Shown in pieces: positions 6,131 to 30,757 of a stretch of DNA of 64,000 nucleotides (the stretch's first letter is position 1; each line of letters opens with the position of its first letter). A program made the translations under genes and the position numbers. The stretch covers positions 28,902 to 92,901 of the forward strand of contig JAEOSU010000018.1 in assembly GCA_016840165.1 (NCBI GenBank). The letters run 5' to 3'. This DNA comes from Promethearchaeota archaeon (GTDB lineage: Archaea > Asgardarchaeota > Lokiarchaeia > Sigyniarchaeales > SOKP01). Under the pieces are notes generated by a model that saw only the letters and a program-made list of their open reading frames with translations, had not been told where the DNA came from and did not search any database.

Positions 6131-7543
6131 TTAGATATAAGTTTTAATTAACTCTCTTAAATTTTTTGTGAGATTTGGTAGTGACTTTTCAATTTTTTCT
6201 ACTCTTAATGCTTTTTCCATGAATAATAATAAATATAGATTATAATTATCTACATTTATTTTTTGAAATACAATTTTTTTAGATTGTTCCGAAATACCGG
6301 AAGTAACAATAAAATCTTTCTTTAATATCTTAAACTCTTTAAATGTCTTATATAAAGTCGTAAAGTGTGGTGCTGAGATTTCAAAAACCTTGTTAGCAAT
6401 ATCAGATTTTGAATAATTCGATAAGATGATACCATTTTCATTTAAGAGAAGAATCGCATCAGAATTAACCTTGTCAGAAAACAAACGTAATTGGTTCCGG
6501 AATAATTCACGATTAGGGCTTAGTCGTGAAAGTCCAAATGAATAAGCGGAAATAAGGCTCCAATGATCAAAAATCGATGTTTGAAAGATTTTTATGAAAA
6601 AGGTATGAGAACTTTTGCCTATCTCATTGGTTATATATTCAATATTTTTTTTGATCTCTCTTGATTTCTTTAGATCTGGATCAAACTTATTGATACATAC
6701 TACTATAGGCGGAAACTCATCTAAATTTTTAAGGGAATTGAGAATGTTCTGAAATAATGAAACCGATTCTTTAATTCTTTCAGTATCTTGGACGTCAATA
6801 AAATAAAACAATAAATCCACATTATACAAATAGACTTTTCCTTGTTCAAGAAACTTTTCTCGATATTTTTTTTGCCCCCCTAAATCCCATATAGATATTT
6901 GGGAGTTTTGTTCCTCAAATAATTTCTCCTCTGTTCTTGAAACTCCCTTTGTGGGTAAAGTTTTTATAATTTCAGAGTATCTCTTCTTTACCGCAAGTAA
7001 GAAACTTGTCTTTCCAGCTCTATCCAAGCCTGTAAATAAAATTTTTAATTGTCTTTTTATCGAAAAAGGATCTTTCAGTTCATTGGTAAACTCAAGTAAA
7101 TCTTTTTTAAGTTGATTCATAATAGCTTTATTCTCCTCTAATGTATTTCGAGCTAATATTTTTGTAGCAGTATTATCGATGATGACCCGCAAATATTTCA
7201 TGTTTTCATAAAAAAATATTTTATTTGTCTCTTCAATTAAAATGGTGATAGTTGCTGCTTTTGCGTTTCCTCTAGCTGCTTTATCAGGGATAAGAAAAAA
7301 ATATGTTAATCCATTTAATTTTAAATCGGGAAAAGGTAAGATTCCGAAATAATTAATTCCTTCTATAGTTGTACCGTTTTGATAAACAGAATCGCCCATA
7401 AGTAGACTTATAGTTTTCATAGCGACTAATAATCGCGCTGACTCATCTAAGTCTTCTGGCCAATAGATTATAGGAGTAGGTCCGTCATCATCAAAAAGGC
7501 TATATACAATTGACTTAATTATCTCTCTTTTCATTTCCGTCAT
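6131..7543 (-). CDS. Longin/uDENN (FLCN/SMCR8-like) - Rag/Arf-like small GTPase - roadblock-like fusion protein
   Basis: G1 GLDRAGKTS, G2 PTKG, G3 DLGGQ, G4 NKFD, G5 TSIFD. N-terminal SLFDDDGPTP and PDKAARG. C-terminal DAILLLNENGIILS roadblock strand-turn. Confidence 0.85.
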   Translation of the reverse strand: MTEMKREIIKSIVYSLFDDDGPTPIIYWPEDLDESARLLVAMKTISLLMGDSVYQNGTTIEGINYFGILPFPDLKLNGLTYFFLIPDKAARGNAKAATITILIEETNKIFFYENMKYLRVIIDNTATKILARNTLEENKAIMNQLKKDLLEFTNELKDPFSIKRQLKILFTGLDRAGKTSFLLAVKKRYSEIIKTLPTKGVSRTEEKLFEEQNSQISIWDLGGQKKYREKFLEQGKVYLYNVDLLFYFIDVQDTERIKESVSLFQNILNSLKNLDEFPPIVVCINKFDPDLKKSREIKKNIEYITNEIGKSSHTFFIKIFQTSIFDHWSLISAYSFGLSRLSPNRELFRNQLRLFSDKVNSDAILLLNENGIILSNYSKSDIANKVFEISAPHFTTLYKTFKEFKILKKDFIVTSGISEQSKKIVFQKINVDNYNLYLLLFMEKALRVEKIEKSLPNLTKNLRELIKTYI

Positions 7544-26351: not shown

Positions 26352-26485
26352 GGAATTTCTCATAAATTAGCTAAAACGAAAAGCTACTAAGTATAGAAAA
26401 ACAATAAAATTATATTTTATTCACTATTCATTAAATCATTCCTACTTACTATATTTCTGTAAATTTGTTATTTGGTGAATTTATC

Positions 26486-26767
26486 ATGAGCCATGAAAAA
26501 GAATTTACTGCCCTGGTTTTAGACACATTTGGAAAGGTTGAACAATTACTTAATGGAATGATCAATGATCGTTCAGTCCCTCGCAACATAAAACGAATTG
26601 CTCAGAGAGGGATTGATGAACTCAAAAAAAAGGATGATTCTCCTGCTGTTCATGCGAGTAATGTAATGTATATGGTTGATGATTTATCTCTTGATCCAAA
26701 TATTCCATTTCATCAAAGAACAACGATTTATAGAATTTTATCGTTATTAGAAAAAATAAAGGATTAA
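26486..26767 (+). CDS. UPF0147 family protein
   Basis: DRSVPRNIKR and DPNIPFHQRT.IY signature. ATG at 26486 follows GGTGA. Confidence 0.85.
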   Translation: MSHEKEFTALVLDTFGKVEQLLNGMINDRSVPRNIKRIAQRGIDELKKKDDSPAVHASNVMYMVDDLSLDPNIPFHQRTTIYRILSLLEKIKD

Positions 26768-26944: not shown

Positions 26945-27988
26945 ATGATAAACCAAGATATTATTACCGCTGTGTTGTATATCCAATTAGATGATGAAGT
27001 AGGTCCTAATCCCGTTGTAACTCTTCCTAAGGATTTTGCTAATGTAAATAAGATGCATGTCAGTATTAAAGTGATTACGGTACTTTCGGGAGAACATGGT
27101 AATGTTCCAAAAAAATTGGTCATTCTACCGTTTCCTTCTCTAAAATTAAAAGGAATTATTAAATATATTAAGTGGGACGATCCTAAACGAAGAGGAGGCA
27201 TTGGTCAGGCAGCAATAGCCATTTTATTTGAGGATATAAACGATGTTATCTTTTACAAATATTTTGAACAATTGAGCGACTCTTTCGAGGAAATAGGAAA
27301 AATCTTTAGAAATTTGGAAGAAAATAGATCTAAATTGGAAGAAATCGAAAAAGAAGTTAAGAATTTAATTAATAGAATCAAAACAGTACTTAATGAGCTA
27401 CGGATTGATGAAACATCTCAATCTGAATCAAAAGAATTTCCAAAACTTAAACTTAAAGATTCAACAATGATAGATTATAAATTCAAAATCATTGTGTTAG
27501 GAGATCCGGGAGTGGGAAAAACCTCGCTTATATTAAGATACACTGATAACGCTTTTCGAAGAAGTTATATTCCTACCTTAGGGGTGCACGTTAGTGATAA
27601 GATCTTTAAAATAGATGATGCCGTTGTTCAACTTGTAATCTGGGATTTAGCAGGACAACAAAAATTCGATACAATGCGTCATCAATTCTATGTTGGTTCT
27701 GATGGTTTTATTTTGGTATTTGATTTGACTAATCTCAATTCTTTTGAGAATTTATCTAACTGGTTTCTAGATATACAAAATCAATTCAAGGATCAAACTA
27801 ACTTAATGGGTTATGTTATCGGAAATAAATGTGATTTAAGAGAGCAAGTTAAAATTAAATCGGAAAATGCAAAAGAATTAGCCTCTTATCTAAACCTTAA
27901 CTTTATTGAAACATCAGCTTTATCTGGTTTAAATGTTAATAAAGTTTTTACACAATTAGCAAAATCTTTATATACTTCATTTACTTAA
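26945..27988 (+). CDS. Longin/uDENN - Rab-like small GTPase fusion
   Basis: N-terminal LDDEVGPNP and DDPKRRGG; GTPase motifs GDPGVGKTS, YIPTLG, WDLAGQ, GNKCD and ETSA. Confidence 0.9.
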   Translation: MINQDIITAVLYIQLDDEVGPNPVVTLPKDFANVNKMHVSIKVITVLSGEHGNVPKKLVILPFPSLKLKGIIKYIKWDDPKRRGGIGQAAIAILFEDINDVIFYKYFEQLSDSFEEIGKIFRNLEENRSKLEEIEKEVKNLINRIKTVLNELRIDETSQSESKEFPKLKLKDSTMIDYKFKIIVLGDPGVGKTSLILRYTDNAFRRSYIPTLGVHVSDKIFKIDDAVVQLVIWDLAGQQKFDTMRHQFYVGSDGFILVFDLTNLNSFENLSNWFLDIQNQFKDQTNLMGYVIGNKCDLREQVKIKSENAKELASYLNLNFIETSALSGLNVNKVFTQLAKSLYTSFT

Positions 27989-28053
27989 AATTCCTTGATT
28001 CTATGATTATACTAATCGTTAGAAATAAAAAATTTTTGAGAATATAAAAAATT

Positions 28054-28143
28054 ATGAAAAAAAAAGTAAAATATCTATTAATATTCTTATTAATAATTAG
28101 TAGTTCAATCACGGGAGTAATATTATACGTATTAAATTTCTGA
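28054..28143 (+). CDS. Possible 29-aa single-TM/signal-like micro-protein or gene remnant
   Basis: ATG...TGA encoding MKKKVKYLLIFLLIISSSITGVILYVLNF; below the ORF-track size cutoff. Confidence 0.3.
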   Translation: MKKKVKYLLIFLLIISSSITGVILYVLNF

Positions 28144-28336
28144 AAAATCTACATCAAGTGAAGAGATTTATTTTCTAAAGTTGATGTCTAATTGATCCAA
28201 ATAACAGATATTTATATCATCTTATAAATTTTATATAGAATTTTAGCAATAACCAAATAATAAATATTGTTAATTTTTCAATTATATAAGACTAAAAACT
28301 TTTTAGTCGATAATTTATTAGCGTTGAGGATTAAGA

Positions 28337-29389
28337 TTGGATAGAGCGATCATTCATTCCATAGTATACACTGAATTTAATGATGAATTAGGTCCAAATC
28401 CACTTTTTTGTCTTCCACAAGATTTGTCAGAGAACATTTCAATGCTTGTAAGCATTAAAACGGTTACGATCCTCTCAGCTGATCATGGTTTTATACCAGA
28501 TTCGCTTATAATTATTCCTTTTCCCTCGTTGAAATTAAAAGGTTTAATTAAATATATAGAAAGAGACGACGAATCAAGACGGGGAAAAGTTGCTCAATCT
28601 GCAATCACATTTTTATTTCGAGAAGTTGAAGATATCCTCTTTTATAAATATATGAACTATTTCAATTCTCCTTTTAATGAGACCACCCGTAAAATAGTTG
28701 AATTAGAAAATCAAAATCAGGATAAATCGCTGATATTTAGAGAAATTGAGAATTTAAAAGATAGTATTCACGCATTATTAAAAGATTTTAGGATTAAAGA
28801 ATTTCAGCAATTCTCTTATAAAGAATTTCCTGAAATAAAAAAATTAACTGAAAAAGAAGTTGATTTAAAGGCGAAAATAGTAATTATTGGAGATCCAGGA
28901 GTCGGAAAAACAAGTACTATTTTACGTTTTACTGATAATGCATTTAAAAGAAGCTATATCCCCACTATGGGCACAAACATAACTGAAAAGAGTTTTAGAG
29001 TTAAGGATAATATAATAGAGTTGATTCTATGGGATTTAGCAGGACAAAGTAAGTTCGAACTTATGCGAAAACATTTTTATCAAGGCGCTGAAGCTGTTAT
29101 ACTTATTTTTGATTTAACAAATCCTAAATCCTTTCAAAGTGTAATTCAGTGGTTTGAAGATATCGAGAATAACTTAATACTTGAGCATGAGCTTATTGGA
29201 TGTCTCTTTGGAAACAAAACTGATTTAACTAATGGACGTAAAATTGGTACTAATGAAGCACAAAAATTAGCCTCCCAGTTAAATCTAGATTACTTTGAAA
29301 CTTCGGCTCTAACAGGAAAAAATGTAGAAAATGCATTTTATAAGATCGCAGAGAAAATTATTGAAGTAAGAAAGCCAGATTTAGCATAA
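28337..29389 (+). CDS. Longin/uDENN - Rab-like small GTPase fusion (tandem paralogue)
   Basis: TEFNDELGPNP and DDESRRGK; GTPase motifs GDPGVGKTS, YIPTMG, WDLAGQ, GNKTD and ETSA. TTG start after GAGG. Confidence 0.9.
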   Translation: MDRAIIHSIVYTEFNDELGPNPLFCLPQDLSENISMLVSIKTVTILSADHGFIPDSLIIIPFPSLKLKGLIKYIERDDESRRGKVAQSAITFLFREVEDILFYKYMNYFNSPFNETTRKIVELENQNQDKSLIFREIENLKDSIHALLKDFRIKEFQQFSYKEFPEIKKLTEKEVDLKAKIVIIGDPGVGKTSTILRFTDNAFKRSYIPTMGTNITEKSFRVKDNIIELILWDLAGQSKFELMRKHFYQGAEAVILIFDLTNPKSFQSVIQWFEDIENNLILEHELIGCLFGNKTDLTNGRKIGTNEAQKLASQLNLDYFETSALTGKNVENAFYKIAEKIIEVRKPDLA

Positions 29390-29539: not shown

Positions 29540-30757
29540 ATGGTAAATTTTACCTTTGATGATTGGATCATAGGTGTTTCTACATTAGTAATTTTATTAT
29601 TTGGTTATGGATTAGGGTCCTACTTTTTTTACAAGTCAATAAAGATGAAGACTATGCTCCTTAGCATGCTAAGTTTGTCGATGATAAGTGTGAGTTTTGC
29701 ATGGCTACCCATTGTTTTAGATTTCTTTTTAGTGCTTTTTACTAATACAAGTGGAGAACTTTTAGTTTATATATATTTAACTTGGGGTCAACTCCCTTTT
29801 AGCGTTTTTTTAAGTCAATATGTGGCTGCGGAACTCCTTTTACCATCAAAAAAGATATATATCATTTATTTCTTAGAAATAATCGGAATACTTTTCTTAG
29901 TATTTCTATTTTTAGATCCGGTCAATTCTGTTATCCCTGTAGGATATCCTGCGGAAAACTTTTATTATAAGATTAGTATTAAAAATAATTCATTTCTAGG
30001 GATTTTTGGTCTTATATTAATCCTTTTTGTCTTTATCTTTTCTGGTATAGGTTATATTTATAAATCTTCCATTTCTAAGCCTCAAATTAAAAATAATTTT
30101 AGATTTTTAGGAATAGGAATGATATTTATTTATTTATTTGGTTTTCTAGACAGTATTCTTAATGGGATCTTTCTTGTTTTAGTAAGAATAGGGGCGATTG
30201 TCGGGCTCTTTTTATCCTACTGGGGGCTTAAACCAAGAATTCAAAAAAAACATCATGATTATGATAATCGTGTGAAGGTGATTACTTATTTTCTCCATAA
30301 GCCAAAATCCGCGGATATTTCAGGAGAGATCGAATATTATCGTGATTTATTAAAACGGCCAATAGTTTTATTCATAAGTTTTTATCTTGGAGATTTAAAA
30401 ATATTTAAGATAAGAGAGGTTATCCAAAAATTAAAAGTTTATCCTGAAATCAAAGATATTATTTATCGGACTTATGAAACCAATGAAAACATGTTTGAGT
30501 TTACACAAAATGTTATTGATAAATTTGACATAATGCTAGTATTTTGTTCAAAAGAAGCATTAAGTTCAATAGAGGTCAAAAATCAATGGATAAGTGCTCT
30601 TGAAAACAAGAAATCAATCATCCCTGTGTTTATAAAATCAGATTACGTGCCAGATCTATTGAAGAATAATGAAGGATTATTATATGATTTATATGACTTT
30701 GACAAAACAGTCTTAAATTTACGGCATTTAATATTAAAAGCAATTTTCAGTAAATAA
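29540..30757 (+). CDS. 7TM membrane protein with C-terminal TIR-like domain
   Basis: Seven hydrophobic segments in aa ~8-230, then LFISF...FDIMLVFCSKEALSS.EVKNQW..A....IIPVF...VP.LL, a TIR-type pattern. Confidence 0.7.
   Translation: MVNFTFDDWIIGVSTLVILLFGYGLGSYFFYKSIKMKTMLLSMLSLSMISVSFAWLPIVLDFFLVLFTNTSGELLVYIYLTWGQLPFSVFLSQYVAAELLLPSKKIYIIYFLEIIGILFLVFLFLDPVNSVIPVGYPAENFYYKISIKNNSFLGIFGLILILFVFIFSGIGYIYKSSISKPQIKNNFRFLGIGMIFIYLFGFLDSILNGIFLVLVRIGAIVGLFLSYWGLKPRIQKKHHDYDNRVKVITYFLHKPKSADISGEIEYYRDLLKRPIVLFISFYLGDLKIFKIREVIQKLKVYPEIKDIIYRTYETNENMFEFTQNVIDKFDIMLVFCSKEALSSIEVKNQWISALENKKSIIPVFIKSDYVPDLLKNNEGLLYDLYDFDKTVLNLRHLILKAIFSK

Follow-up and report, generated by a model that had tools for sequence, protein, structure and literature searches.

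Eukaryotic cells regulate several small GTPases through GTPase-activating proteins (GAPs) built on the longin fold: NPRL2, in GATOR1, acts on RagA/B; FLCN, together with FNIP, acts on RagC/D; and SMCR8/C9orf72 acts on Arf and, weakly, on Rab8/11. Longins of this GAP type carry a signature consisting of a Gly-Pro (GP) motif and an arginine finger, which is present in some Asgard longins as well, and longins that are not GAPs are reported to lack the GP motif (PMC12290439). Here we describe two genes, A (26945..27988, + strand) and B (28337..29389, + strand), in a 64,000-nucleotide window (the whole stretch of DNA analysed, positions 28,902 to 92,901 of contig JAEOSU010000018.1, assembly GCA_016840165.1) of a Promethearchaeota archaeon. 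In each, a longin with this pair of motifs is joined by a helical hairpin and a linker to a Ras/Rab-like GTPase.

NPRL2-like longins in Asgard archaea have already been published. A 2025 survey in Traffic (PMC12290439) describes 15 Asgard longins with the GP/Arg signature, with an emphasis on Heimdallarchaeia, and proposes GAP activity for them; it does not mention fusions, and it leaves the client GTPase open, with ArfR or Rag as candidates. Longin-GTPase fusions have in turn been reported from Lokiarchaeia (Klinger 2016, as cited in PMC4917890) and from Asgard archaea (Liu et al. 2020, bioRxiv 10.1101/2020.10.19.343400; Tran et al. 2024, PMC10933270), and A and B conform to the L-G architecture of Tran et al., in which a longin lies N-terminal to a small-GTPase domain in a single Asgard polypeptide. 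These fusion papers, the first of them as far as it is cited, name Arf-like and Rag-like G domains; they do not single out a Ras/Rab-like fusion with a helical hairpin, and they do not link the fusions to the GP/Arg-finger signature. What is new relative to this literature is a large, conserved family that joins the signature longin to a Ras/Rab-like G domain, together with the retained A/B pair. Compared with the longins of the Traffic survey, A and B share the pair of motifs and the places at which they occur, while their client is indicated by the fusion itself and includes the Ras/Rab-like class.

The N-terminal domain and its signature residues

Gene A opens with ATG and encodes 347 residues, and gene B opens with TTG and encodes 350; the products have an identical architecture, are 46% identical over 341 gap-free residues (BLASTP, E 1e-117), and contain no predicted membrane-spanning segment. 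An earlier note on this DNA had described two adjacent paralogues here, bearing GPNP, D-x-x-R-R-G (with R83 and R82) and WDLAGQ motifs, and both open reading frames and all three motifs are indeed found on the + strand. In A the first motif reads L15-D-D-E-V-G20-P21-N-P (LDDEVGPNP; GP at 27002..27007) and the second D79-P-K-R82-R83-G84, with the Arg83 codon at 27191..27193; in B they read F14-N-D-E-L-G19-P20-N-P (FNDELGPNP; GP at 28391..28396) and D78-E-S-R81-R82-G83, with the Arg82 codon at 28580..28582. A back-translated GP pattern has exactly two matches in the window, A's at 26990-27012, and 100 shuffled versions yield none.

More than 280 clusters at 90% identity came out of two database searches, and conservation was counted on the 218 full-length members of the family. 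In A numbering, all 218 have G20 and P21, 217 have G84 and 208 have D79, and the Arg82 that precedes Arg83 is replaceable (Lys in 50). The earlier note had said beforehand that its reading would fail if the candidate arginine finger were not conserved among orthologues; Arg83 is present in 217 of the 218.

No Pfam family covers the N-terminal 175 residues of A or B. An AlphaFold2 model of residues 1-175 of A, built on a 35-sequence alignment, has a mean predicted local distance difference test score (pLDDT) of 87.5 and a predicted template-modelling score (pTM) of 0.81, and its topology is that of a longin (beta-beta-alpha-beta-beta-beta-alpha), with strands at 9-16, 20-27, 59-63, 68-78 and 86-96 and helices at 33-47, at 97-126 with a break at 106, and, the long one, at 131-164. 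The longin core (residues 1-106; 26945..27262, +), also delimited by matches from Foldseek, VIA-align and the ESM Atlas, is followed by two long helices (residues 107-126 and 131-158/164) and a low-confidence linker (residues 160-173, about 12 of them floppy), which together occupy 27263..27475 (+). In the model strand 2 begins with the GP motif, and the hairpin loop that links strands 4 and 5 holds Arg83. Judged by topology, the motif pair would stand where the NPRL2/FLCN/SMCR8 class has it, with GP where strand 2 begins and a conserved arginine before strand 5. From this topology we infer that the hairpin end with GP and the one with Arg83 share one edge of the five-stranded antiparallel sheet, an arrangement that agrees with the published statement that GP 'spatially neighbours' the arginine finger (PMC12290439).

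The closest solved structure is 8yqg_B, from the longin dimer of a Lokiarchaeota Roadblock-Longin protein (VIA-align Z 18.3, root-mean-square deviation 2.4 A over 144 residues; template-modelling (TM) score 0.69-0.76; 15-17% identity), in which a GPEP aligns with the GPNP of A and B; the partner domain there is an N-terminal roadblock, whereas in A and B it is a C-terminal GTPase. Among the further VIA-align matches, chains of NPRL2 (9o5a_H) reach Z 13.4, with model residues 5-170 on chain residues 5-184, Lst4 reaches 13.2, chains 8dhb_J and 6nzd_H from FLCN-FNIP2 complex entries 12.4-12.7, yeast Npr2 11.9, C9orf72 11.5 and DENND1 9.4, and the longins of SNAREs, TRAPP, adaptors and Mon1-Ccz1 lie at about 8-9. 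As in NPRL2, long helices follow the sheet, and they align up to about residue 184 of that protein. A shape search of the ESM Atlas ranks the family itself first; its only eukaryotic rows are NPRL2, SMCR8, FLCN/SMCR8-type proteins and C9orf72 (TM 0.63-0.71), it also returned a Heimdall cluster partly annotated as Folliculin, and in the nearest named language-model cluster 19% of the members bear PF06218 (NPR2). The recently released PDB entries 8yqg, 9m28, 8zla and 9jue comprise the longin dimer of the Loki Roadblock-Longin protein, a Rag-like GTPase from Loki that is monomeric, solved with GTP and with GDP, and a roadblock homodimer from MK-D1; in the literature searched, no papers on the LokiRagM/Rag-like and Roadblock-Longin (8yqg) structures turned up.

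Membership of the A/B N-terminal domain in the GAP longin class (NPRL2/FLCN/SMCR8/C9orf72) is thus supported by fold and motifs, not by sequence profiles. A Pfam scan of 35 N-terminal domains at E up to 10 returned a single sub-threshold Folliculin match, to the Rag-like fusion described below, the remainder being coiled-coil noise; the NPR2 hidden Markov model (HMM) has no match in the whole genome, and the two sub-threshold genomic matches of the Folliculin HMM, neither of them A or B, carry no weight because control genomes match as well. The earlier description of the domain as longin(uDENN) stands as to the longin fold of the FLCN/NPRL2/SMCR8 class and falls as to the rest: two helices and a linker (residues 107-173) lead straight into the G domain, no central DENN or dDENN follows and no DENN family of Pfam matches, leaving a bare longin. 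A and B differ from the eukaryotic longin GAPs in lacking detectable sequence-profile similarity to them and in having no DENN, TINI or C-terminal domains, and also in that the longin is covalently joined to its GTPase, whereas the eukaryotic proteins act on a separate one.

The fused G domain, the A/B pair and their relatives

The G domain of A (residues 178-347; 27476..27985, +) contains the G1 motif GDPGVGKT, switch-I T211, WDLAGQ238, NKCD and SAL, and that of B (residues 177-350; 28865..29386, +) has Q237 in its WDLAGQ, so that the catalytic glutamine, which the earlier note had read as intact in both, is in place. Pfam Ras (PF00071) matches A with E 3e-51 (173.6 bits, residues 181-342) and B with E 7e-49 (165.9 bits), and the solved proteins closest in sequence are Rab8A, Rab1A and Ypt1 (E about 1e-37), with which, as with the Asgard 'RasL' proteins, A and B share the G1-G5 motifs and the catalytic glutamine. 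Across the family Q238 and T211 are kept in 218/218, and the elements GDPxVGK[TS], T211, D234, G237, Q238, NKxD and SA in at least 217/218 each. On these motifs the G domains of A and B look catalytically competent, and the counts for the two halves of the protein indicate that longin and G domain are both under strong constraint.

Switch I has a character of its own. An Arg-Arg pair at this place is unusual for GTPases of the Rab/Ras type. It is formed by R205-R206 in A (27557..27562), with an equivalent in B, and R206 is kept in 217/218 and Y208 in 218/218. R206 is possibly an intrinsic catalytic arginine, as in MglA, or a contact for the acidic patch D16-D17-E18/D79 of the longin.

Whether 'Rab-like' is the right word is a separate matter. 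The word, taken from the earlier note, goes no further here than a Ras-like domain whose best matches are Rabs. The RabF motifs match in part, by eye (LGVHV, QLVIW, KFDTMR, FYVGS, LVFDLT), and published phylogenies place Asgard RasL with Rab, Ras, Rho and Ran as a whole, not as a sister of Rab (10.1101/2024.02.28.582541). Because no Asgard GTPase is placed as a specific Rab sister in those phylogenies, 'Rab-like' is to be read here as RasL. Unlike Rabs, A and B have no C-terminal cysteine or hypervariable tail, in addition to the switch-I Arg-Arg; their C-termini, ...SLYTSFT and ...KPDLA, are free of cysteine, and a cysteine occurs anywhere in the last 8 residues in only 3 of the 218 full-length family members. 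The absence of a prenylation signal, pointed out earlier, is therefore correct for both tails, although as a special feature of this pair it does not hold up, being the general rule for Asgard small GTPases (PMC10933270). We also considered a prenylation-independent membrane anchor for A and B and dropped the idea, having found no evidence for one.

The two genes represent two old orthologous clades. In trees of 74 and of 56 sequences the family of roughly 350-residue proteins falls into A and B clades with a Shimodaira-Hasegawa approximate likelihood-ratio (SH-aLRT) support of 99; one A and one B are present in 8/8 genomes examined from two genera (g1 and g2), and genera with a single copy branch outside both clades. 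Clade-fixed differences between A and B include W77/R77 and G87/A87, which flank the arginine loop, and Q229/E229 and Q247/H247 in the G domain (27173..27175, 27203..27205, 27629..27631 and 27683..27685 in A); such differences would suit an asymmetric heterodimer, or subfunctionalisation. Co-retention together with divergence fits an A-B heterodimer, though it is no proof of one. Among 301 genomes of the phylum, the longin subtype is found in 68/68 genomes of the window's own family. At least 12 genomes have the Rab-like pair at a start-to-start distance of 1.2-1.5 kb, and about 8 at a distance of 2-4 kb. Many related genomes carry the Rag-type fusion on the contig of the pair, about 19-20 kb away from it, and a complete-looking, single-contig genome of 4.4 Mb from the sister family has the Rag-type form only, at 482 residues.

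The same longin subtype also occurs on other GTPases. The earlier note had held that one regulatory module is attached to both Rag-like and Rab-like GTPases in this genome, and a profile search confirms it and adds an Arf-like case, for it finds four copies: A, B, a Rag-like fusion and a protein on contig C30. The Rag-like fusion (6131..7543, - strand; 470 residues) runs from a longin with GP and A-A-R91-G through helices and a G domain of the Gtr1/RagA type to a roadblock-like tail. Its longin matches that of B with E 4e-20 by tblastn, the profile search finds the protein at E 3e-45, and Pfam finds in the product Gtr1_RagA (E 1e-25) and, below the 23.3-bit cut-off, Folliculin (E 0.005, 17-18 bits); it belongs to the fusion type already published. 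The Arf-like fusion (contig C30, L006:2177-5557, +; 1126 residues) consists of an Arf-type G domain (147-309), the longin, two PAS domains and further sensor domains, and its longin has GV in place of GP while keeping D-x-x-x-R-G. The arginine is invariant in the Rag-like and Arf-like fusions too.

An exhaustive profile search of 1.84 billion representatives returned only 188 clusters at E <=0.001. Among the 93 hits of at least 250 residues a downstream P-loop is present in 76, most of these having at most 400 residues and NKxD, and the longer ones being mostly of the Rag type with HKxD; the arginine is kept in 65/76 of the hits with a P-loop and in 16/17 of the others. From the 188 clusters and the 76/93 P-loop count we conclude that the longin subtype is rare, Asgard-restricted and mostly fused to GTPases. 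Seven hits of about 275-310 residues (P0334, P0346, P0356, P0361, P0369, P0373 and P0374) have the GP/Arg longin at about 110-225; the domain in front of it might be a receiver or a roadblock, as in 8yqg.

The source genome comprises 3.6 Mb in 105 contigs and holds about 55 Ras-superfamily loci by genome search, and the window has a G+C content of about 30%. In a database search the relatives of A comprise one cluster at 100% identity and more than 100 homologues; the closest protein relatives of A and B come from metagenome-assembled genomes labelled Promethearchaeota or Lokiarchaeota, and homologue names also come from those of Hod-, Thor- and Hermodarchaeota. No RNA datasets are listed that contain the A/B stretch, and the DNA datasets that contain it are marine-sediment metagenomes, from which the sequence itself may derive. 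Between the genes lies an AT-rich spacer of 348 bp (27989..28336), which speaks against translational coupling of A and B; upstream of B's TTG there is a GAGG at about 8 nt and TTTATATA at about 100 bp. The spacer holds an open reading frame of 29 codons (about 28054..28143, +) with a lysine-rich start and then a hydrophobic stretch (MKKKVKYLLIFLLIISSSITGVILYVLNF), which may be a chance product of AT-rich DNA or a small membrane peptide. Directly 5' of A is a 100-residue protein of the UPF0147 family (26465..26767, +; Pfam E 4e-25) with no apparent link to GTPases, and directly 3' of B is a 405-residue protein (29540..30757, +) with many long hydrophobic stretches, read from its sequence, and, at its C-terminus, a TIR_2-like part that stays under the 28-bit cut-off of Pfam (E 1.5e-5, 25.9 bits). 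We rejected the idea that A and B share an operon with the neighbouring UPF0147 protein, TM-TIR-like protein and PEP-utilising enzyme, there being no functional link.

A proposed built-in GAP and its alternatives

We propose, at about even chances of being right, that A and B are self-contained small-GTPase switches of Asgard archaea, mainly Lokiarchaeia/Promethearchaeota, each with a built-in and gated GAP that works through dimerisation, docking and an arginine finger. The longin-helix parts would dimerise, most likely as an A-B heterodimer where both paralogues exist, a proposal modelled on NPRL2-NPRL3, FLCN-FNIP, SMCR8-C9orf72 and the longin dimer solved from Loki; like the eukaryotic longin GAPs, A and B would be expected to act as a longin dimer. 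The dimer would serve as a platform on top of which the tethered G domain docks, and Arg83 of A or Arg82 of B would then enter the nucleotide pocket and, with the G domain's own glutamine, speed GTP hydrolysis, either in cis or between the two subunits. Docking is probably gated, which would make the protein a timer-type switch with a GAP built in, and the switch would be independent of lipid anchoring because A and B have no prenylation signal. By analogy, a small GTPase on a dimeric platform of roadblock or longin type recalls MglA-MglB and the Rag heterodimers, and the two paralogues recall RagA/RagC. MglB, however, is a separate protein that supplies no arginine, whereas the proposed A/B platform is fused and carries a candidate arginine finger; and the Rags dimerise through C-terminal roadblock domains, whereas the A/B platform is N-terminal and of the longin type.

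Structure prediction, which the earlier note had suggested for the pair, bears on part of this proposal. A model of the full-length monomer keeps both domains (pLDDT 83.3, pTM 0.59), with residues 160-173 below a pLDDT of 50. A prediction for full-length A and B with two GTP and two Mg scored 0.40 (runs 0.34-0.48), the best of three controls scoring 0.00, and is rated as weak support for contact between the two. In the calibration 58 of 80 solved complexes and 2 of 110 mismatched pairs came up to the mark; only 7 of those 80, together with both passing mismatches, did so at scores of 0.60 or below. The A+B runs have at least 56% of contacts in common, with a partner pLDDT of at least 75; the prediction used its own alignments and riding ligands, unlike the calibration, and the pass may reflect likeness to solved longin dimers. 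The prediction thus nudges the dimer idea slightly upward and says nothing on whether the arginine would act in cis or in trans.

Several observations weigh against a built-in GAP, or against the homology on which it is modelled. The Pfam HMMs of NPR2 (PF06218) and Folliculin (PF11704) match neither A nor B; profile searches of the PDB with the N-terminal domain return coiled-coil and TALE-repeat noise and no NPRL2, FLCN or SMCR8; and the only longin among the PDB sequence matches is 8yqg, at a weak E of 0.011. The putative equivalence of Arg83 to R78 of NPRL2, R164 of FLCN and R147 of SMCR8 is based on a range-level structural alignment and on topology, and 8yqg has no arginine at the position aligned to Arg83. 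Both paralogues keep GP and the arginine, whereas in the eukaryotic heterodimers the arginine is on one subunit, and FNIP and NPRL3 lack GP (PMC12290439). The pair lies 12-34 kb apart or on separate contigs in a few genomes. No confident docking of the longin on its G domain in cis is predicted in the monomer model, the complex prediction is weak in its support, and the invariant Arg206 of switch I could take the place of Arg83 as an intrinsic catalytic arginine.

There is a second reading, which we regard as unlikely though far from negligible: that the longin-helix module is a dimerisation or docking platform, or a guanine-nucleotide exchange factor (GEF), as in TRAPP, Mon1-Ccz1, DENN proteins and the Rag roadblocks, and is not a GAP. 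The Arg-Gly and Asp79 would then be structural, for example as a loop-stabilising salt bridge, or would bind a partner, and hydrolysis would be intrinsic or would come about in the manner of MglB, through positioning of Arg206 and Gln238. Platforms and GEFs do make up the majority of the longin and roadblock proteins that regulate small GTPases (PMC3747258; PMC10933270), the arginine is lacking in the longin dimer that is the nearest solved structure, R206 and Y208 are invariant and specific to the family, and the monomer model shows no confident docking of longin and G domain. Set against this, the eukaryotic neighbours by structure are the GAP class, at Z 12-13 compared with about 8 for TRAPP, SNARE and Mon1-Ccz1 longins; the GP motif is reported to be absent from longins that are not GAPs (PMC12290439); and the arginine has been kept across fusions to three classes of GTPase.

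A third reading, rather improbable in our view, retains the GAP and moves its client elsewhere: the longin would act on other, free-standing small GTPases and the fused Rab-like G domain would be its regulator, in a GTPase cascade in which the nucleotide state of the G domain exposes or hides the arginine finger or localises the GAP. Eukaryotic longin GAP complexes do act on separate GTPases and are themselves under GTPase-state control, with FLCN, for example, held inactive on Rags, to go by the titles of 6nzd and 8dhb. The genome, with its some 55 Ras-superfamily loci, offers many candidate clients, and the linker is flexible, with no cis docking predicted. Yet one longin on three classes of G domain would most simply mean the tethering of an enzyme to its substrate, and no conserved free GTPase gene was seen adjoining the A/B pair.

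The longin fold is related to PAS and GAF domains, the fold list contains GAF and LuxR-type ligand-binding domains with Z of about 7.5-8, and related longins in the genome are fused to PAS and two-component domains. That the longin is a ligand- or partner-sensing input reporting to the G domain, with GP and the arginine binding a small molecule or peptide, is nonetheless very improbable, since these matches rank well under the GAP-class longins, a ligand pocket is not evidenced, and the GP and arginine pair is the published GAP signature (PMC12290439).

Possible clients and origins of longin GAPs

GTPase-regulator pairs can rarely be read from the layout of Asgard genomes (PMC10933270). The fusion in A and B points to the clients of the GAP-type longins of Asgard archaea, which would include Ras/Rab-like GTPases besides the Rag-like and Arf-like ones, and the likely client is the one that is tethered. 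A further difference from the eukaryotic longin GAPs is that the G domain fused in A and B is Ras/Rab-like and not of the Rag or Arf kind. More speculatively, eukaryotic GATOR1, FLCN-FNIP and C9orf72-SMCR8 would descend from an archaeal unit in which a longin with GP and arginine finger and its client GTPase formed one polypeptide; A and B would be a surviving heterodimeric form of that unit, and later fission would have given rise to separate GAP and GTPase heterodimers. We consider this scenario improbable as things stand; if it is true, the Ras/Rab-like fusion means that the ancestral client range of this class of GAP already took in the Rab/Ras lineage besides Rag and Arf.

Regardless of which reading of the longin proves correct, the A/B pair is small, conserved and well defined, and it offers a direct test of whether the arginine-finger chemistry of longin GAPs predates the eukaryotes. 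In this context, the question of which GTPases the Asgard GAP-type longins serve, and with what activity, is turned by A and B into a simple experiment.

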